A stretch of 64,000 nt of DNA from Candidatus Saccharimonadota bacterium. Its GTDB lineage: Bacteria > Patescibacteriota > Saccharimonadia > Saccharimonadales > VXPC01. The DNA is taken from positions 3,380 through 67,379 of the forward strand of contig JAPOWB010000003.1 in NCBI GenBank assembly GCA_026707815.1. Reading direction: 5' to 3'. Below, in pieces: positions 1-61,771 of this stretch. The number at the start of each line of letters is the position of its first letter. Within the stretch, counting starts at the first letter, position 1. The position numbers and the translations under genes are program-made. Under the pieces are notes generated by a model. That model saw only the letters and a program-made list of their open reading frames with translations, was not told the origin of the DNA and did no database searches.

Positions 1-111
1 AATTTCTCAGGGGGAGAGCTTCGTTACTTAACAAAACCTCTTATTGGCATTGGCAGAAAATGGTTTATGTTTGCTAAACTTTTATAAGATTGATAAACAT
101 AAGCTTTATTC

Positions 112-140
112 TTGTAATAATGGAATAAATATTGTATAAT
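112..140 (+). promoter_or_regulatory. sigma70-type promoter of cassette A
   Basis: TTGTAA (112-117), 17-nt spacer, TATAAT (135-140). It lies in A+T-rich DNA just upstream of the G+C-rich leader (~161-297) of the MoxR-like gene. Confidence 0.4.
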
Positions 141-297
141 ATTAATTAGCTAAGCCCTCTCTTCACGGAGACGGGCGAAGAGTCTCTAGGTGAGATGAAC
201 CGACAATTCTCTCTCCTAGCAAGTTAACAGTCTATCGTTCCCAACCCCCCCCTCCACCAACAACCCACCGATCCCAAAAAAAGACAGGAAGGACAAA

Positions 298-1407
298 ATG
301 ACCACTGCAACCCAAATCAGAACCCGAAAAACACAACCCACCCCTCCCCCTCGAGCTCTCTCCTACGACAAAGTGCGGAATCTGTTCGGCATGATGGTCG
401 CTGAATTGGAGCGACACGTGTTCGGACAGGCCAAACTGGTCAGGGAGGTTGTCCAGGCAATCCTCAGCGGTCAGATCCTCTTGATCGTTGGACCCTCGGG
501 CGTGGGCAAAACCCATGTCGTCGAGGTCGCCATCAAGATCTTTGGCTTGAAGGGAGAAGTTGTTCCCCTGAATCCAGAGGTCACCGCCGAGGAAATTACC
601 GGATTCCCGATTTTCGATCGGGCGTCAGGTAAGATGGTTCATCATGAAGGACCATTTGGCAGGGGCAATCAACTGGTTGTGCTGGACGAAGAAAATCGTA
701 CCAGCGACAAGAACCAAAACGGTCAACTGTACGTCCTCAACAACAAAGAGGTCGTCATTGACGGACAGCGATACCCCCTCGCTCAGCCCTTCACGGTCAT
801 CATGACCATGAACCCACCGGAAGTTGATGGTACCAGAGATCTGATTTCGGCTCTAGTCGATCGGATTGATGTTGCCGTCTGGGTCGGTCAACCGAACATC
901 AACGGTAGCCAACTCGAAGCATTCTTTGAGTGCCTCAAGTACTGGCGCAATCCTCCAGAAATCAACATTCTGCGGGGAGACTCTGCTTCAGCTGCTAGTG
1001 GCAACGGTCACCAACCGATGTCCCAGCCTGTGGCAGAGATCAGCGATGCTCGTCAAACCATCAATCAGCTCAGGAGCTACATGCCTGATCAGATTCTCCG
1101 GTTGGTGTGTGTCATTGTCAGGCACTTCATCGTCAGCGGGATCTTTGCTCACGAGCCGTCAATTCGCACCCTCAATGCGATGGCTCAAAAAGCCTTGATC
1201 CAAGCCATCACCCAGGATGGACGACAGCCCCAGGCCAAGCATGTCTGGGATGTGGCCAGCCAGTGTCTGCTCCTCTACGAGACCGAGGAATACATGACTA
1301 CCGCCGACAAGATCCAGGTGATCGACCGAGAGCTAAAAAAGCTCAAGGATCAGGCGACCAGTCTCGGACGTGGAGGTCTGGACAGGCTCTGGGCACAGTA
1401 CCGTTAG
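298..1407 (+). CDS. MoxR-like AAA+ ATPase (G+C-rich, foreign-looking)
   Basis: Walker A GPSGVGKT; Walker B-like LVVLDEENR; MoxR/AAA_3-style FTVIMTMNPPE...LVDRI. SD AGGAAGGA sits a few nt before the ATG. Hand count gives 32/60 G+C in 361-420 versus 16/60 in 13621-13680. Ends with TAG. Confidence 0.85.
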   Translation: MTTATQIRTRKTQPTPPPRALSYDKVRNLFGMMVAELERHVFGQAKLVREVVQAILSGQILLIVGPSGVGKTHVVEVAIKIFGLKGEVVPLNPEVTAEEITGFPIFDRASGKMVHHEGPFGRGNQLVVLDEENRTSDKNQNGQLYVLNNKEVVIDGQRYPLAQPFTVIMTMNPPEVDGTRDLISALVDRIDVAVWVGQPNINGSQLEAFFECLKYWRNPPEINILRGDSASAASGNGHQPMSQPVAEISDARQTINQLRSYMPDQILRLVCVIVRHFIVSGIFAHEPSIRTLNAMAQKALIQAITQDGRQPQAKHVWDVASQCLLLYETEEYMTTADKIQVIDRELKKLKDQATSLGRGGLDRLWAQYR

Positions 1408-1422
1408 AGAAAGGAGGACAAA

Positions 1423-1608
1423 TTGGGAAAACCCTGCGACAAGCCTTTGGTGAGAATATTCTCAGAAATCATCTTATCCAAAGTTAAGTGTGGGGTTTTC
1501 TTTAAAATAATCATGAAAGGAACGCCTCACTGTAACGCCCACAAACACCCCACACTTGGTGACGAAGCTTCGGCAAAGTCAAGCAAGTTGTGGGGTTTTC
1601 CCATTTAA
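1423..1608 (+). CDS. small Cys/His-containing ORF (61 aa), or a post-TAG in-frame extension of the MoxR-like gene
   Basis: AAAGGAGG lies 5 nt before a TTG start. The ORF is in the same frame as 298..1407 (66 sense codons after its TAG). It contains the 12-nt direct repeat TGTGGGGTTTTC (1489-1500, 1589-1600) and an 11-bp inverted repeat (1486-1496/1547-1557), so it could instead be RNA structure. Confidence 0.3.
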   Translation: MGKPCDKPLVRIFSEIILSKVKCGVFFKIIMKGTPHCNAHKHPTLGDEASAKSSKLWGFPI

Positions 1609-1641
1609 AGCCAATTTCAGAGTCTTGAAGAAAGATTCAAA

Positions 1642-2580
1642 CTAAGTTGGAGGTTGTCGATTATTATTAATGTTTGGTTTTTGAACCTTATCTATGGCGT
1701 TGGCGGTAATCATGGCTTCTCTGAGCTGATCGGAAACTTGATTCATGCCTCCGGGGCTGTGAGGGATTAGAATAGTATTGGTATCTGAGCTTAAGCCAAT
1801 ATCTTTTAAAGTATCAAAATATTGAGTCATTAATACTAAATTCATAACATCTTGAGGACTGGTTCCGGGAACATTATCTTGAAAATCAGTTACGCTTTCT
1901 CTTAAGCCATTGACAATTGCCAAGCGTTGATCGGCAATTCCCCTACCCTGCAGAGCCTTTGATTCCGCTTCAGCTTCAGCGGCTTTGACTACTCTAATTT
2001 TTTCAGCTTCAGCCTCTTCGACAGCAGCCAACTTTAATCTTTGGGCAGTCTGAATCTGATTCATGCTAGCTTTAACTTTAGCGGCTGGATCAATATCAGT
2101 TACCAAAGCCTTTAAAATACTATAGCCGAAATCATCCATGATTTCAGATAATTCATTTTTTACAGCTAGGGCAATTTCATCTTTAGTTTCAAAAACAGTA
2201 TCCAATTTAATGACTGGTACCCGAGCCCTGACTACATCATAAACATAGCTTCTGATTTGAAATTCTGGTTGTTGCAACCTATAAAAAGCATCTATGACTT
2301 TTTGGTGATGAACATGATATTGAACACTGACTACAACATTAACAAAGACATTATCTTTGGTCTTAGTCTCAATTTTGACATCCAGTTGCTGAATTCTTAA
2401 AGATAAAGTCCCAGCGATTCGATCCACAAAAGGAATGCGCCAATGTAAGCCGGCTTGAGAAACCTTTTTGAATCTACCAAACCTCTCAATAATCTTAGCG
2501 GTTTGTTGAGTAACTACATAAAAGCCGACCAGAAAAAGTAATAAAATTCCTAATCCCAAGACGACAACTAAACCTGACAT
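1642..2580 (-). CDS. SPFH/Band-7 (stomatin/prohibitin-like) membrane protein
   Basis: N-terminal TM segment followed by the typical IIERFGRF...GLHWRIPFVDRI SPFH core and an Ala/Glu-rich coiled coil. Confidence 0.9.
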   Translation of the reverse strand: MSGLVVVLGLGILLLFLVGFYVVTQQTAKIIERFGRFKKVSQAGLHWRIPFVDRIAGTLSLRIQQLDVKIETKTKDNVFVNVVVSVQYHVHHQKVIDAFYRLQQPEFQIRSYVYDVVRARVPVIKLDTVFETKDEIALAVKNELSEIMDDFGYSILKALVTDIDPAAKVKASMNQIQTAQRLKLAAVEEAEAEKIRVVKAAEAEAESKALQGRGIADQRLAIVNGLRESVTDFQDNVPGTSPQDVMNLVLMTQYFDTLKDIGLSSDTNTILIPHSPGGMNQVSDQLREAMITANAIDKVQKPNINNNRQPPT

Positions 2581-2712
2581 CTGATAACCCCTATAAAGTT
2601 GAATTCTTATTTAGATATTAATTTTATAATAGTATACTGATACAAATTAAGCTAATTAAATTATCTAGATAAAAGATCTATCCAGTAAAACGAACTTTTA
2701 AAACATGCTTAT

Positions 2713-2789
2713 GCATCGGTAGCTCAGCGGATTAGAGCGTCGGTCTTCGGAACCGAAAGTCGGGGGTTCGAATCCCTCCCGATGCGCCA
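2713..2789 (+). tRNA. tRNA-Arg (anticodon UCG)
   Basis: Hand-folded cloverleaf: acceptor GCATCGG/CCGATGC, anticodon loop CTTCGGA, T-arm GGGGG-TTCGAAT-CCCTC, encoded CCA. Confidence 0.9.
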
Positions 2790-2833
2790 GTCATTCAAGT
2801 TATGATTTGAAATATAATTGTTTTAAATTTATT

Positions 2834-2909
2834 CGGGGCGTAGCGCAGTTGGTAGCGCGTACGGTTTGGGACCGTGAGGTCGGAGGTTCAAGTCCTCTCG
2901 CCCCGACCA
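2834..2909 (+). tRNA. tRNA-Pro (anticodon UGG)
   Basis: Acceptor CGGGGCG/CGCCCCG, anticodon loop TTTGGGA, T-arm GGAGG-TTCAAGT-CCTCT, encoded CCA. Confidence 0.9.
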
Positions 2910-2953
2910 AAAAATCTTATTTTTAATCCTACAGAGAGCTCATACTCTCACGT

Positions 2954-3030
2954 GGGTCATTAGCTCAGTTGGTTAGAGCAACGGACTCTTAATCCGTGTG
3001 TCCTGGGTTCGAATCCCAGATGACCCTCCA
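2954..3030 (+). tRNA. tRNA-Lys (anticodon CUU)
   Basis: Acceptor GGGTCAT/ATGACCC, anticodon loop CTCTTAA, T-arm CTGGG-TTCGAAT-CCCAG, encoded CCA. Confidence 0.9.
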
Positions 3031-3149
3031 GTTTGATACATAACTAACAATATTGCCATATAACGTCTGTTCCGGTGAAGATTTTTGCATGAAACAACTG
3101 ATTGAAATATTGCTTTTGCAATCACCATGTCATTGTAGTACAATGGTAA

Positions 3150-4745
3150 TTGAAAATGGATAATAACGAGTTAACCCCTCAGCAACAACTACTGGTTGAA
3201 AAATTAGAGAACGCAGACCAAGAAATTGATCAGTTGCTACCCCAGTACTCATTGGGTCGGAAATTCCAGCGTCCCATATACAGCCGTCTCTCCAAGACGG
3301 CAACGAATTTTCTAACGACCGGGCAGGGATCAGAGTGGATAATCATGGCTGGTTTGCGTGGGGTTGGCAAAACAACTTTACTAGCCCAACTCTATCTCCA
3401 CCCCAAACTTAAATCCGCAACAAGGTTCTATTTGTCGTTAGATCAAGCTCAGTTGCTTGGAGCAGAAATGAATGATGTTATAACAGCACTGGAACACAAA
3501 TTAGGTCAGCCTTTAACCCAAACCGAAGAACCCATATTCGTCTTTTTGGATGAAGTCCATTCCTTGCCTAAATGGTCTTTGGCCGCCAAGATACTGCACG
3601 ATCGCTGCCCAAAATTGTTTCTGGTTTGCACCAGCTCATCAGCTTTAGCTTTATGGACAACTCCTGATATTGCCCGCCGAGCGAGATTTATGCGTGTTAG
3701 TCCACTCAGCTTACCAGAAGCCATCTTCATCAATACCGCCAACGAAAACGACCGATGGCACAACGAAAATATAGAAGAATTCATACCCAACATAACATTA
3801 GGTAGCAAAATTCAGTCAGCCCTGTTTGACTCAGAAAACGCATACCAAGTCTACAGTCGCATCGAAATGCTTAAATCCGAGATTGATCATTATTGGAAAA
3901 ATCGAGACGCCAACAAGGATATTAGCAATTACATCACGAGTTACGAAACCCTACCCTATGCTTTGAATATCAAGCATTCCAGTAATGACAGACATAATCC
4001 CGACCCCGAAACAATCAATGAAATTCGGGCTCGCATACGTCAAACCTTGGACAAAGTATACAATCATGATTTATCCATAGTCGGTCAATTTGATCAATCC
4101 ACCCGACACCATTTTCCTAGTCTTCTGCTGTGGCTAGCTAATTCGGGGCAGCAGAGCCTGACCAAGATGGCCAAACGTATGAGCTTAAACGTCAGAACAT
4201 TACAAAATATGCTTGAAATACTGGTTAACAGCGAAGTTCTGATAGCCGTACCGCCGTTCGGTTCAACCTCGGGCAAAATCGCCAAACCCTACAAGTATCT
4301 GTTTACGGCTCCGGCTATCCGTCACGCTCTTAACAATCCGCCTAGAGATCAATTGCAGGAAGCTCAACTCGATCAACTTAGGGGATTCCTACTAGAAGAC
4401 ACAGTAGGTTTCTATATGAAACAGACTTTTGACAATCAACCTTTGGGTGGATTAGTCGAGTATGATTCAAGTCGAGAAGGTGCTGATTTTATTGTTATGC
4501 CAAGCCATATTAAAAAAGAAGCCATCGCCGTTGAGGTTGGTTGGCGAAAACGAACCAGCCAACAGGTACAGGCTACCTTGAAGCGTATTCAGAGTAATCG
4601 TTATGGCATAGTAATCACCGATTGTAATCTCAAACTTGATGATTCTGACCAAATTGTGTTTGTACCCATGAAGATTTTCCTGCTTATGCAACCACAAGAA
4701 TTTTCGGGAGCTAGTTCTTTAAATCTGAATCCCCCCGATAACTAG
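3150..4745 (+). CDS. AAA+ ATPase with C-terminal DUF4143/PD-(D/E)xK-like domain (COG1373-type)
   Basis: Walker A GLRGVGKTT and Walker B IFVFLDEVH. C-terminal EGADFIV...AIAVEVGWRK resembles the nuclease-like DUF4143 tail. The likely real start is the ATG at 3156. Ends TAG TAG. G+C is visibly above background. Confidence 0.7.
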   Translation: MKMDNNELTPQQQLLVEKLENADQEIDQLLPQYSLGRKFQRPIYSRLSKTATNFLTTGQGSEWIIMAGLRGVGKTTLLAQLYLHPKLKSATRFYLSLDQAQLLGAEMNDVITALEHKLGQPLTQTEEPIFVFLDEVHSLPKWSLAAKILHDRCPKLFLVCTSSSALALWTTPDIARRARFMRVSPLSLPEAIFINTANENDRWHNENIEEFIPNITLGSKIQSALFDSENAYQVYSRIEMLKSEIDHYWKNRDANKDISNYITSYETLPYALNIKHSSNDRHNPDPETINEIRARIRQTLDKVYNHDLSIVGQFDQSTRHHFPSLLLWLANSGQQSLTKMAKRMSLNVRTLQNMLEILVNSEVLIAVPPFGSTSGKIAKPYKYLFTAPAIRHALNNPPRDQLQEAQLDQLRGFLLEDTVGFYMKQTFDNQPLGGLVEYDSSREGADFIVMPSHIKKEAIAVEVGWRKRTSQQVQATLKRIQSNRYGIVITDCNLKLDDSDQIVFVPMKIFLLMQPQEFSGASSLNLNPPDN

Positions 4746-4750
4746 TAGTA

Positions 4751-5617
4751 TTGACCATGAATTTATTTTTCATAGATGACAGTGGCAGCAAGCAATGGGA
4801 CACCCCTCATGCTGAGTCATTTATTGTAAAACCTCCAGCAAGAACAGAGCAAAATAGGAAGTACTGGGAATCCAATTATTTTGTTCTTGCCGGGATTCAT
4901 GTAGACAGCCGCTTAGTAGCCAAATTAAATCAAGAAATCAGGCAAAAGAAAAAGGAGGTTTTCGGTAACGGACAGGTCGAGATAAAATCGTACTACCTGC
5001 GAAACCCTGAAGCACGAAAGAGGCAATACCTGCGGAAGTATGATTTAACCCCAAAAGATTTGAAAAGTTTCGTTGATACCTTCTGGTACAAGTTGCTCGA
5101 GGATAACAAGGAAAACATTCAAATCCAAGCAGTCGTTTTAGATAAAAGATATTACAGCGAGCAAAGGCATCGTCATTCCCCACTAGATATAGCCACGGTG
5201 GCTCTTCTGGATAGAATAGAAAAACATCCTAAAAAACAATGCCGGATAATATTTGATCAAATGGAATCAAGTATAAGATCAACCAAAGGTGATCAGGGTA
5301 GAATATTACAGATAGCTGACAAGTCAATTAATCTAGATTCACGGCGAGATGGCTCGTACAGCCATATAGACGTAAAGTTTGGAAAATCATCTTCTTCAAA
5401 TTTCCTGCAATTAGCCGACATTGTCGCCTATAATATAAGAAGGCAGTTTGTAGATTTTGGCGATCAACAGACAACCAAGCCACTCAGATTTTTGAAATAT
5501 TACCCCTATTTTGAGAGAATGATGGACAACTTTTACTGCAATTCCAAAAATTCAGGGATACAGGGAGACGGTCTAGTAAAACTACCGAACCCACCAAAGT
5601 TTATTAAATCTAACTAA
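4751..5617 (+). CDS. DUF3800 family protein
   Basis: N-terminal FFIDDSGS and C-terminal NFLQLADIVAY match the two signature motifs of DUF3800. The ATG at 4757 lies 11 nt after the upstream stop, so the two genes are likely co-transcribed. Confidence 0.65.
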   Translation: MTMNLFFIDDSGSKQWDTPHAESFIVKPPARTEQNRKYWESNYFVLAGIHVDSRLVAKLNQEIRQKKKEVFGNGQVEIKSYYLRNPEARKRQYLRKYDLTPKDLKSFVDTFWYKLLEDNKENIQIQAVVLDKRYYSEQRHRHSPLDIATVALLDRIEKHPKKQCRIIFDQMESSIRSTKGDQGRILQIADKSINLDSRRDGSYSHIDVKFGKSSSSNFLQLADIVAYNIRRQFVDFGDQQTTKPLRFLKYYPYFERMMDNFYCNSKNSGIQGDGLVKLPNPPKFIKSN

Positions 5618-23375: not shown

Positions 23376-23542
23376 AAGTAAAAGAGCAAATTAATAATTG
23401 CTGATTTAAAAAGACTTTAAGTATCTAATATATTACAGAATAATTAACGTTATTGACAATAAAAAATGTCAAGATTGGAGACAATTATTCAACGAACCAG
23501 CTTTTCAGATAGAATATTGATCTTTTATCAATCACCTATCTC

Positions 23543-23581
23543 AAAAGTTAGGAGGGAGAGCAGTATTACCTACTCCCCCTC
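23543..23581 (-). terminator. hairpin terminator of cassette D
   Basis: On the minus strand: GAGGGGGAG-12 nt-CTCTCCCTC (9 bp with one G-U pair) followed by CTAACTTTTG, 27 nt after the TAG stop. Confidence 0.5.
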
Positions 23582-23608
23582 AGGTGGACAGAAACAGAAG
23601 GGCAGTGA

Positions 23609-24433
23609 CTACCAGTTACGGTTAACCACGGCTTCGAACGTGTCTGACAGTTGAGCTGTCGAGGTCACGTCGTGGCATTTGCTGCAGATAGCAGTGAGGA
23701 ACTGGATGTGATCTTGAACGAATTTGGGTTGGGTATAGTCTCGCCTGAATTTAGTCTGATTGGTGTCAACCACGGCAATGGTATGAAACCTCCAATCAAT
23801 CAAATCCTGGCTAGAAGACATAGTTGCAGCCATCCAGACAGCTGATTCCATGATGTCCCAGTGACACTGTGGAGCCCATTGACAGACGGGAAATCCCGCA
23901 TCAACGATGGATGAAATCAGTACCACATGGCAAGTAGTCCGCTGTGGCTTCGGCGAAGTCGTATTAAGGCAGGCATACCCCGCTTCACGCAAAGCTGTCG
24001 AATACAGATTGTCGACTGATCCTTCTGCCCCACCCCCAGCTTGGAGGATGGGATGGAAGCTCTCAACACCGTTCGGCTGAACGCTGATGACTCGATCAAC
24101 GACAAATGGGATTTCCCCCGAGAAGAATCGTCTCGGCTCATCATTGAGCAAAAGATTCTCGAGGAGTTGCCATGAACCCGGCTGACCATCGTTAACATGA
24201 ACGACGATCAACTGCCTCTCCCACGGTGCTCTGATTCGCCCGTCATCGTAGGCAGACTCATAGTCGCTGGAGGGACCGCCGGCAGCGGCAATCGGGGTGG
24301 CAGCAGTCAGGATGCTGATCAAACAGACAGCCATCATGCCCATCAAACCACGCGCCAACGTGGTTTTGCTCGACCAGAATGACTGATCTGACGTCAGACA
24401 TTTCTGATTCTTCTTCATGTTTTTTCCTTTCAA
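23609..24433 (-). CDS. G+C-rich secreted or membrane-anchored orphan protein (cassette D)
   Basis: AAGGAGGAGG upstream. Hydrophobic N-terminal segment GLMGMMAVCLISILTAATPIAAAG. Cys-rich mature part with no motif I recognise. The start is either TTG 24433 or ATG 24418. Confidence 0.65.
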   Translation of the reverse strand: MKGKNMKKNQKCLTSDQSFWSSKTTLARGLMGMMAVCLISILTAATPIAAAGGPSSDYESAYDDGRIRAPWERQLIVVHVNDGQPGSWQLLENLLLNDEPRRFFSGEIPFVVDRVISVQPNGVESFHPILQAGGGAEGSVDNLYSTALREAGYACLNTTSPKPQRTTCHVVLISSIVDAGFPVCQWAPQCHWDIMESAVWMAATMSSSQDLIDWRFHTIAVVDTNQTKFRRDYTQPKFVQDHIQFLTAICSKCHDVTSTAQLSDTFEAVVNRNW

Positions 24434-24474
24434 AGTGGTTGCTCCTCCTCCTTATGAGGGAAGCACTGATATAT

Positions 24475-24503
24475 ATTATACAATACTCTTATGATTTTTT
24501 CAA
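24475..24503 (-). promoter_or_regulatory. sigma70-type promoter of cassette D
   Basis: Minus strand: TTGAAA (24498-24503), 17-nt spacer, TATAAT (24475-24480). 25 of 28 aligned positions are identical to the promoter at 62376-62404. Confidence 0.5.
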
Positions 24504-24525: not shown

Positions 24526-25668
24526 TTAGTTTTGACAGATATCAAAATTAACTTCATAGGAGATATTGCTTTGGTTAAAATTTTTAATCAATTCACTGTT
24601 AGCCAGACTACCTTGATTGCTTGGGGGAATTTCAATAGCGAAATCCAAAGCTTTTAAATCAATGTTAAAAATTTGATTAAAATCACCAATTAAAGATTGA
24701 TTAGAGCAGAGAAAACCCCAATCTAAATCAGTATTAGCTCCAGTCTGAATCACTGCCAAAACCAAATCAGCCAAAGCTTGACGATGGTATAAATTGTATG
24801 TGTGATCTTGAGTTATGCATTGATAGCTCCCCCGTCGAACCTCAGCCACTTCAGCTTCTAATTGACTTAATTCACCGCTGTCGAAAGAAAGTCTCAACTT
24901 TTCTGCATTAGCCAGAGCTTGCTTATAAATTTGATTAAAATCAGCTTCGGACATTTGAGAACAATCCAAGCCAGCATAAGCAAAGCCAGAAGGTAGATTA
25001 TATGATGTCTGAAACAAGGTGAAATAGCTAACCGAAGCTGAAATTAGTAAACTGAATATTAAAAGTATGAAAATGGTTATTCGCAACCTAGATCTTGGTC
25101 GACGAGATCTTTTATAATACTTTAAATTTAACTTAGGTAGCTGTGACTGAGGAACTTCTGGAGATCTGGAAACTGTTGATTGATGAGAAATATGACTCGG
25201 TATGGTCATTAAGGGAGATTGGGGATTAGGGGTTGAAGGTTTATATATCTGATTAATCGGTGGAGCGTGATGAGGAGGAAATGGCTGATAAGGTTGTTGA
25301 GGTTGAGTATTTATTGATTGAGGAACTACTTGAGCTGGATGAGGAGACTGTGCTTGAGGAAATTGTCCACCAGTCACTGGACGTTCTGAATAAATCGGAG
25401 AACTATTCTGTTGAGATGAATCAGGTTGAGTTAAGGCTTGGGCTGGATGGACTGGGTTTTGGGTTTGATTGGCCATTGGTTGATAAATGGGTGGCTGTGG
25501 TTGAATTGGATTAGAGGCAATTTGAGCTTGAGGCGAATTTTGAGCTTGCTCCGGAGAAATCAAGTGAGTCTGAGTTTGAGATATGTCCAAACTCAAAGAT
25601 TTCGAACACTGAGAGCAAAATTTATCTGTTTCTAAGACTTGAGCTTGACAATTAGTGCATCGTCTCAT
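24526..25668 (-). CDS. zinc-ribbon, Pro/Gln-rich, single-pass membrane protein
   Basis: N-terminal CxxC...CxxC (RRCTNCQAQ...FCSQCSK), a long P/Q-rich linker, a TM segment (ITIFILLIFSLLISASVSYF) and a C-terminal extracytoplasmic domain. Confidence 0.6.
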   Translation of the reverse strand: MRRCTNCQAQVLETDKFCSQCSKSLSLDISQTQTHLISPEQAQNSPQAQIASNPIQPQPPIYQPMANQTQNPVHPAQALTQPDSSQQNSSPIYSERPVTGGQFPQAQSPHPAQVVPQSINTQPQQPYQPFPPHHAPPINQIYKPSTPNPQSPLMTIPSHISHQSTVSRSPEVPQSQLPKLNLKYYKRSRRPRSRLRITIFILLIFSLLISASVSYFTLFQTSYNLPSGFAYAGLDCSQMSEADFNQIYKQALANAEKLRLSFDSGELSQLEAEVAEVRRGSYQCITQDHTYNLYHRQALADLVLAVIQTGANTDLDWGFLCSNQSLIGDFNQIFNIDLKALDFAIEIPPSNQGSLANSELIKNFNQSNISYEVNFDICQN

Positions 25669-61336: not shown

Positions 61337-61771
61337 TGGTGGAGCTGGCGGGCACTACCCCCGCATCCGCTACATTGTAACAACTCTACGCTTTACAAGT
61401 TTAGTCCATTTAAAAAATTTCTTTGTCGACTTGTTGATCTTAAAAACAGACAAAATGACCAACAATAACGCAAGTTTATTTCTTGAAGATATTCCACTAC
61501 AAATATCTGGCAATCTCGAAAAATATGAAATCTTTAAACTTCTGATTCAAATCGAGATGGTTTGGAAAAAATGAAATTTAAAGTTTGCTTAGAATTAATC
61601 TAGGCAAAAGCATGAACTGCGGAAGATCTCCTAAAAATATCTAGGCAATTCCGAATTCCTGCTACGATATAGTTTTCGGCAACTATAGTTTTTGGCTCAA
61701 TAATGGCAAGCCTAACCAACTTGCACGTTTCTGGTTGTCAAAGAACATACGTCTAACTTAAAGTCAGCCCC
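61337..61771 (-). ncRNA. ssrA: tmRNA
   Basis: The 5' end GGGGCTGACTTTAAGTTAGACG and the 3' end GCCCGCCAGCTCCACCA form a tRNA-Ala-like acceptor with G3:U70. The resume context AAAAACUAUAGUU|GCC GAA AAC UAU parallels E. coli (from memory). Predicted tag is AENYIVAGIRNCLDIFRRSSAVHAFA followed by TAG (61680..61600). Confidence 0.85.

Follow-up and report, generated by a model that had tools for sequence, protein, structure and literature searches.

Intrinsic (Rho-independent) terminators, in tandem or bidirectional, occur between convergent genes. MoxR ATPases of the MRP type are known from modules with DUF58 and vWA proteins, such as the Bacteroides-type Bat operon, where MoxR stands first in a compact operon transcribed as one unit (PMC11834572). 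Here, we describe a MoxR gene and its flanking signals at positions 112-1640 of a 64,000-nucleotide stretch of a Candidatus Saccharimonadota genome (GCA_026707815.1, contig JAPOWB010000003.1, positions 3,380 to 67,379 of the forward strand), called the window below. We consider it likely that these positions hold a complete monocistronic MoxR transcription unit, in which the 3' untranslated region (3' UTR, or tail) is a conserved twin-hairpin terminator and insulator facing a convergent gene. What had seemed to be an orphan, foreign MoxR cassette is the final member of a complete DUF58-vWA-MoxR module that is native to the clade and is interrupted by the edge of the window, and the repeats in its tail are the arms of terminator-type hairpins.

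The module shares with the Bat type an AAA_3-type MoxR with intact Walker A and B motifs, adjoined by DUF58 and membrane-anchored vWA proteins. The order is different, with MoxR in the last position instead of the first, and the compact operon is replaced by genes that are set apart by AT-rich spacers of 330-580 nt and have promoter-like and terminator-like signals of their own. No TPR or Bat-like genes are present, the C-terminal half of MoxR has no Pfam match to the lid domain at E<=0.01, and its nearest relatives from outside the clade are only ~30% identical. MoxR/DUF58/vWA modules and intrinsic terminators are both known, and the features distinct to this locus are MoxR in the last place, genes that appear to be transcribed singly, a rapid evolution of the trio, its elevated GC content throughout the clade and a pair of predicted terminators sharing one conserved stem.

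The tail resembles tandem or bidirectional terminators in having GC-rich stems and U-runs directly after the stop codon, facing a convergent gene, and, in distant relatives, an A-run before the first hairpin and a T-run after the second, as would be expected of a bidirectional terminator. It departs from tandem terminators in several aspects: the hairpins share their stem sequence and evolve in concert, they contain internal sub-hairpins and long loops of 14-45 nt, and the stem CCCCRCA/TGYGGGG was conserved while MoxR diverged to 31-37% identity. With attenuators and riboswitch platforms it shares four consecutive segments, the first and third of which can each pair with either the second or the fourth; these mutually exclusive pairings (a-b plus c-d, or a-d plus b-c) were found in the window and in seven relatives. 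In contrast to those systems, the tail is at the 3' end of a gene with nothing downstream on that strand, and it has no leader-peptide logic, conserved aptamer-like core or Rfam match.

The MoxR protein

The open reading frame (ORF) at 298..1407 (plus strand) encodes a MoxR-type AAA+ ATPase of 369 aa, as had been predicted. The assignment is borne out by Pfam (PF07726, AAA_3, E=3.4e-20, covering profile positions 2-129 of 131; PF07728, AAA_5, E=1.9e-13) and by the top PDB match, the MoxR-like 2r44_A (E=1.9e-16), aligned to residues 27-194, which correspond to the AAA+ core. Walker A (GPSGVGKT) and Walker B (VVLDEE) are intact in the translation and invariant in the alignment of the MoxR subfamily. 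The 2r44 structure, deposited as 'uncharacterized protein', has the same AAA+ core, but only the N-terminal ATPase half of the window protein aligns with it, the C-terminal half (about residues 200-369) being specific to the Saccharibacteria subfamily and alignable within the clade only. At E<=0.01, Pfam reports no C-terminal AAA lid domain (PF17863) in this protein, although remote homologues have it.

An exhaustive HMMER search recovered a small subfamily, with 13 cluster representatives at E<1e-30, and the cluster members or near-identical proteins carry the NCBI name Candidatus Saccharibacteria. By comparison with these relatives, the 369-aa protein is already full length. NCBI's call is shorter (338 aa from M32) and begins at a start without a Shine-Dalgarno (SD) sequence, while the ATG used here is preceded, 4 nt upstream, by the SD-like AGGAAGGA (286..293, plus strand), read from the sequence. 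The NCBIfam search was uninformative, and PADLOC defence models gave weak matches at the P-loop level only, with no defence-system model fitting the protein. By analogy with other MoxR/vWA pairs, it is probably an ATP-driven remodelling chaperone acting for, or with, a vWA (MIDAS) protein.

The DUF58-vWA-MoxR module in the clade

The window matches the ENA contig ERZ27276919:k141_178691 (L001) without differences along the 7.4 kb that were compared, the offset being 5703. On this contig, a vWA gene (L001 4678-5664, Pfam VWA) ends ~40 nt ahead of window position 1, and a DUF58 gene (L001 3338-4270; PF01882, 3e-20, at L001 3377-4267) is found upstream of it. This upstream vWA gene ends in a GC-rich hairpin (stem CTCCCCCTGAG/CTCAGGGGGAG), of which the first letters of the window (1..19, plus strand) form the 3' arm. 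A second vWA gene does exist at about 19.5-21.4 kb in the window. It had been noted as the only clear vWA gene, 18 kb away, but the apparent lack of a nearer one is an artefact of the window edge: an adjacent partner seemed to be absent because the window was cut ~40 nt after the vWA gene, and both the vWA and the DUF58 genes adjoin MoxR on the source contig.

Loci were looked up for nine of the 13 cluster representatives. The order DUF58-vWA-MoxR was found in seven of them, all from distant relatives with contigs that extend sufficiently far upstream. In L012, the vWA gene is upstream of MoxR and no DUF58 gene is shown, and L006, from the closest other species, is a short contig with just part of the gene upstream of MoxR. 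Considering only distant relatives, vWA precedes MoxR in 8/8 and DUF58 is present in 7/8 (all except L012). An orphan MoxR without a vWA partner is not supported, the two genes being adjacent to it. Downstream, the window has a convergent SPFH/Band_7 gene (1642..2580, minus strand; Pfam Band_7, 6e-31), with its 3' end facing the twin hairpins. It is syntenic in the relatives, a convergent Band_7 gene being found downstream in 8 of the 9 loci, adjoining MoxR or a few genes off, and not in L014. In six of the loci with Band_7, a convergent Asp/Glu racemase gene is directly 3' of MoxR.

The proteins of the trio diverged much more than their neighbour. Between the window genome and the distant relatives, Band_7 shows 71-78% identity, vWA 47-54%, DUF58 37-44% and MoxR 31-37%; in L006, MoxR is about 70-75% identical and Band_7 91%. 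The trio evolves about twice as fast as Band_7 and is rich in GC at third codon positions (GC3) in all relatives, with a GC content above that of the neighbouring genes in every locus examined. In the window genome, GC3 is 0.63 for MoxR and 0.30 for Band_7, and the MoxR gene has a GC content 17 points above the 37% of the genome.

The idea of a recently donated foreign cassette does not agree with these data, since both the synteny and the high GC are common to relatives with 31-37% MoxR identity. On the comparative sequence evidence, the module is old, native to the clade and vertically retained, evolving fast and keeping an elevated GC, and not a recent insertion. A donor search in the species representatives of GTDB with the MoxR subfamily alignment returned only Myxococcales/Polyangiaceae proteins at ~30% identity, with no donor that could be named, and the same scan added no Saccharibacteria loci. 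No match was found by blastn of positions 112-1640 against phage and plasmid collections.

The genes of the trio are separated by the AT-rich spacers described above, which contain promoter-like sites and hairpins. DUF58, vWA and MoxR look like separate transcription units, each with its own promoter-like and terminator-like signals.

To the left of the window, L001 920-5664 holds three more GC-rich genes (51-57% GC) in the 37% GC genome. The first, an orphan of 534 aa on the minus strand, lacks a Pfam match, and DUF58 and vWA come after it. The spacers flanking them have 30-35% GC, locally down to 21-29%, and each of the three genes ends in a hairpin with runs of C4-7/G4-7. In L006 (813-1914), the MoxR gene is frameshifted by a deletion of ~8 nt at the Walker B region, which splits it into ORFs of 173 and 199 aa, with the twin-hairpin tail intact. 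Either the gene is a pseudogene or this 4.9-kb contig has an assembly error.

The twin hairpins downstream of MoxR

The original prediction pointed to a 12-mer, TGTGGGGTTTTC, repeated in the tail at 1489-1500 and 1589-1600, and to a complementary segment, ACCCCACACTT, at 1547-1557, and these are all present at those positions. There is no third exact copy of the 12-mer in the 64 kb, and an exact direct repeat of this length arose in 0.17% of the shuffled tails. A fourth arm, GGGAAAACCCTGCGAC at 1425-1440, had been overlooked; it is complementary to both copies of the 12-mer.

The four arms form two hairpins on the plus strand. In hairpin A (1425..1503), arm a (1425-1440) pairs with arm b (1486-1500, with the first copy of the 12-mer) around a sub-hairpin at 1445-1483, and the stem runs into UUUUCUUU (1496-1503). 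Alone, it has a predicted energy of -27.6 kcal/mol (z=-3.8), or -25.3 kcal/mol in a separate fold. In hairpin B (1545..1609), of the terminator type, arm c (1545-1558), which contains the complementary segment, pairs with arm d (1584-1602, with the second copy), enclosing a GC(UUCG)GC sub-hairpin at 1560-1581 and followed by UUUUCCCAUUU; its energy is -25.6 kcal/mol (z=-3.5). The copies of the 12-mer are thus the 3' arms and U-tracts of the two hairpins. Both hairpins share one stem, CCC(U/C)RCR paired with TGTGGGG, which is the reason why the 12-mer recurs 100 nt apart with its complement in between.

The tail as a whole folds at -76.7 kcal/mol (z=-5.2), and none of 200 shuffled sequences was as stable. 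On the minus strand the z-score is only -1.9, the structure being better on the mRNA-sense strand because of G-U pairs. The optimum is a nested form, with b-c inside a-d, at -63 kcal/mol, compared to -51 kcal/mol for two separate hairpins. Terminal inverted repeats of 14-16 nt (1421-1434/1593-1606, 93% complementary) delimit a unit of ~180 nt. Rfam searches, conducted on the whole window at gathering thresholds and on positions 1-1800 at E<=10, gave no match within 112-1640, with tRNAs and a transfer-messenger RNA (tmRNA) as the only matches, located elsewhere.

Hairpins A and B both present a stable GC-rich stem-loop with a U-run 3' of a stop codon, the form expected for an intrinsic terminator, from which we infer terminator activity. 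We propose that the unit at 112-1640 would be transcribed from a sigma-70-type promoter (112-140) into a leader of ~150 nt, with a mostly unstructured 3' half, the MoxR coding sequence (CDS) and a structured tail of ~200 nt. The ATPase would work with the adjacent DUF58 and vWA proteins of the clade-conserved module, and the two hairpins would terminate transcription and insulate between the convergent MoxR and Band_7 genes. The mutual complementarity of the four arms would also allow the completed RNA to nest (a-d, b-c), and this nested form, by pairing the terminal U-run with the upstream A-run, may protect the 3' end.

Conservation of the tail

The a-b-c-d architecture ending in GGGGTTTTT was found in seven relatives (L006, L012, L013, L014, L031, L032 and L033). 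Another one, L007, retains just the terminal hairpin, whose stem (GACCCCG/CGGGGTC) differs in sequence but is fully paired. The tail of L006 has 82% identity to that of the window, above the CDS (76%) and the leader (70%), and retains the four arms and both sub-hairpins, the first of which differs in sequence yet still pairs. The other six relatives with the full architecture have a compact tail of 91-101 nt located directly before the next gene, with the layout AAAAACCCCRCATTT - loop - TGYGGGG - 0-5 nt - CACCCCRCATTT - small hairpin - GAAAAATGYGGGGTTTTT. In these compact forms, the second hairpin plus T5 has the textbook form of an intrinsic terminator for MoxR, and in distant relatives the A-run ahead of the first hairpin has the mirror-image form, for the convergent gene.

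All relatives have a homologue of hairpin B, CACCCCRCATTT...AAATGYGGGGTTTTT, after their MoxR stop codon, in which A-U is exchanged for G-C by compensatory change. The variable stem position is A-U in five sequences and G-C in three, the change in the terminator stem being compensatory in 3 of 9. Looking at the four arms together, all changed in L032 (G, C, G, C), and L012 has G, U, G, C. Sequence conservation is poor in the internal loops and sub-hairpins. Between strains, one of the two substitutions in the tail turns an A-U pair into G-U, so that pairing is kept. The condition originally set for refuting the RNA reading, conservation at the protein level only, thus came out for RNA: in the homologues, stems are kept with compensatory changes and the ORF is lost.

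When trained on nothing but the six compact elements of distant relatives, a covariance model recovers L007 (E=7e-4). In the 64-kb window its single match, at 1535-1607, is weak and not significant (15 bits, E=0.95); the elements of the window and of L006 have much larger loops than those used in the model. It is therefore alignment, position and architecture, and not the model score, that support homology between the element of the window and those of distant relatives. The model also scores the reverse strand in relatives, as for a palindrome-like element. The tail motif is single-copy in the 64 kb and in each related locus of 9-13 kb. A scan of JGI metagenomes for CACCCCRCAYT-N15-45-TGYGGGGTTYTYC gave 16 matches, none of them beside a MoxR relative. 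The majority are hairpins resembling terminators, from unrelated and for the most part GC-rich organisms, so that the stem motif is generic and not diagnostic of the element.

Several MoxR tails contain an SD-like AAGGAGG with a TTG and an A-run no more than a few bases downstream: it is found at 1410-1417 in the window, at about 1921-1928 in L006, and also in L007, L012 and L014. There is no conserved ORF after it.

Alternative explanations for the tail

Several points weigh against two plain terminators. The nested a-d/b-c form, and not two separate hairpins, is the thermodynamic optimum in most species, and the concerted evolution of the four arms (L032, L012) exceeds what independent terminators need. 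The recurrence of AAGGAGG in the tails of several relatives is not accounted for by termination. A simple terminator scanner flagged neither hairpin, their loops exceeding its 8-nt limit; only 4 U follow hairpin B before CCCAUUU, which makes a short U-run; and the 3' ends at hairpins A and B are predictions.

The alternative pairing had been read as typical of a regulatory RNA, and the pairing itself is both possible and conserved. A cis-regulatory RNA, or a small RNA derived from the 3' UTR, would toggle between the two-hairpin form (a-b plus c-d) and the nested form (a-d enclosing b-c), setting the stability of the MoxR mRNA or read-through antisense to Band_7, or yielding a stable trans-acting RNA. 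We regard this as unlikely, in spite of a four-arm arrangement kept in 7 of the 8 relatives that have a tail, of arms changing in concert (all four in L032, three in L012), of a nested fold 1-12 kcal/mol better than the sum of the two hairpins, of a structure clearly better on the mRNA-sense strand via G-U pairs, and of a tail better conserved than the CDS when the window is compared with L006. Alternative pairing arises automatically wherever adjacent terminators have identical stems, and covariation over nine sequences cannot discriminate the two folds. Moreover, there is no downstream gene on the same strand to be regulated, as Band_7 is convergent, the hairpins have terminator form, the poorly conserved loops and sub-hairpins offer no core similar to a ligand pocket, and no Rfam match appears even at E<=10. 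Still more doubtful, in our view, is a bistable RNA specific to this clade of Saccharibacteria and to its MoxR gene, in the form of a 3'-UTR element or of a processed species of ~100-180 nt. If this were true, the concerted arms would switch between terminator and nested forms, coupling the fate of the MoxR mRNA to convergent transcription or, alternatively, to a factor recognising the invariant CCCC/GGGG core. A Y-RNA-like or tRNA-like four-way junction was also considered and rejected, as there is no T-loop and no Rfam match.

The tail could instead be coding. The frame does stay open for 66 sense codons (1408-1605) after the TAG at 1405-1407, up to a TAA at 1606-1608, and an SD-like AAAGGAGG (1410-1417) stands 5 nt before a TTG (1423-1425; the whole signal at 1410..1425, plus strand), all as originally described. 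This TTG opens a 61-codon ORF (1423-1608) with 3 Cys and 3 His. A small Cys/His protein of 61 aa, or a C-terminal extension of MoxR by read-through of the TAG, would fit the perfect SD with its ideal spacing, the length of the open stretch, mildly unusual in being reached by ~1% of shuffles in that frame (3% in any frame), the intact ORF in 5/5 strain variants and the conservation of the SD-like motif in L006. However, a stop codon interrupts the TTG ORF of L006 after 10 codons and its read-through frame after 13; behind AAGGAGG, the other relatives have no ORF or only short, unrelated ones; and no homologue was found among 5.8 billion proteins, nor any Pfam match. Of the two substitutions between strains, one changes K to E in the peptide yet keeps the RNA pairing, GC drops from 54% in the CDS to ~41% in the tail, and MoxR is full length without an extension. 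We thus find a peptide or read-through product very improbable; recoding of the TAG was rejected, the frame not being conserved. Least credible of all is an element acting at the DNA level, a miniature inverted-repeat transposable element (MITE) or an attC-like recombination site, that would mark MoxR as a foreign mobile cassette. The terminal inverted repeats around the ~180-nt unit, the reverse-strand scores of the covariance model in relatives and the 17-point GC excess of the MoxR gene over the genome would agree with it. On the other hand, the element is single-copy in the window and in each related locus, and it keeps a fixed place after MoxR, whatever gene comes next, across species in which MoxR has 31-37% identity. 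Its structure is strand-specific through the G-U pairs, there is no phage or plasmid match and no adjacent integrase or transposase in the window, and neither extra copies, target-site duplications nor empty sites in sister strains were seen; the GC excess of the trio, common to all relatives, must be old. An integron attC site was rejected, with no R''/R' core pair and no integrase.

Promoter and leader

The best promoter match in positions 1-3200 (10/12) is a putative sigma-70-type promoter at 112..140 (plus strand), with a -35 TTGTAA (112-117), a 17-nt spacer and a -10 TATAAT (135-140). L006 has the same two hexamers, and in distant relatives MoxR is likewise preceded by a similar predicted promoter of consensus type (TTGACT plus TATAAT; TATGAT in L031).

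The 5' untranslated leader would extend over ~150 nt (146..297, plus strand; predicted start), with two local hairpins followed by an A/C-rich, G-poor stretch. Both hairpins had been noted before, at 170-193 and 196-219, and they exist, but their correct positions are 159-182 (CTCTTC-12 nt-GAAGAG), where a competing stem at 154-176 is predicted to be better, and 186-219 (CTAGG-24 nt-CCTAG). The fold of the leader (146-300) is not above chance (z=-0.54), with 51 of 200 shuffles folding equally well, and its identity to L006 is below that of the CDS. The last 80 nt have the composition A31 C30 G10 T9, and the 3' half is also A/C-rich and G-poor in most relatives, which would fit an unstructured ribosome-loading region or a Rho-loading site.

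The C8 run (245-252) and the CCTCC (251-255) were located as claimed, forming an element at 245..255 (plus strand) that varies by indels between strains. In L002 and L003, 7 nt of it are deleted, CCTCC included; L004 and L005 have C9 and one more A in the A-run at 276-282. In these four strains MoxR differs by 1-3 residues (proteins 99% identical). With a fold at chance level and an element deleted or resized in near-identical strains, neither a structured leader nor a functional C8/CCTCC is sustained, and an anti-SD role for CCTCC was rejected by its deletion in L002 and L003.

The consensus of boxA is GYTCTTTAANA (PMC5725501). Exact matches were found ~230-260 nt 5' of the MoxR start in four relatives (L012, at about 3775; L013, 4765-4775; L014, 4704-4714; L033, 3737-3747) and near matches in the MoxR leaders of L007, L031 and L032, with long hairpins downstream of the boxA sites. 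The leaders of the window and of L006 have only a degenerate remnant, in the window at about 157-168. Judged from these motifs, boxA plus hairpins resembles an antitermination leader of the rRNA Nus type on a protein-coding gene.

Gene-expression signals of Saccharibacteria, members of the Candidate Phyla Radiation (CPR), are almost uncharacterised. The locus gives a phylogenetically supported set of predicted promoter, leader and twin terminators that could guide annotation and the design of genetic tools.

Other observations

Other features were found in the window. Directly after three tRNA genes (2713-3030; Arg-TCG, Pro-TGG and Lys-CTT), positions 3150-5617 contain an AAA_14/DUF4143 ATPase gene and a DUF3800 gene with somewhat higher GC. 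This pair is also present in L004 and near MoxR in L012, and may be a tRNA-adjacent island. A second GC-rich cassette (~50% GC) at 23609-24433 (minus strand) codes for an orphan protein of 274 aa; its N-terminus has a hydrophobic segment, and neither Pfam nor PADLOC gave a match. The cassette, with flanks at 23540-23610 and 24434-24490, shares the promoter-like motif ATTGTATAAT with the MoxR gene, and a GAGGGGGAG/CTCTCCCTC hairpin closes it. The gene at 24526-25668 (minus strand), for a protein of 380 aa that combines an N-terminal CxxC...CxxC motif resembling a zinc ribbon with a long low-complexity region rich in P/Q, accounts for the GC-skew spike (+0.28) at 25-26 kb. A tmRNA gene at 61337-61771 (minus strand) was detected by Rfam (55.8 bits) and not by ARAGORN.

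Six unrelated JGI soil metagenome contigs with 63-70% GC (L015, L018, L020, L023, L025 and L028) have in common a conserved stretch of ~110 nt, …TGCTACCGCCCTGCTACCACGGCATCCGAAC-CACCCCGCACTCGGCG…TGCGGGGTTCTTC…CTGCTGAGTTCGTCCC, which ends in a terminator-like hairpin and has no Rfam match. It is unrelated to the MoxR tail and may be an undescribed conserved RNA or 3' UTR.

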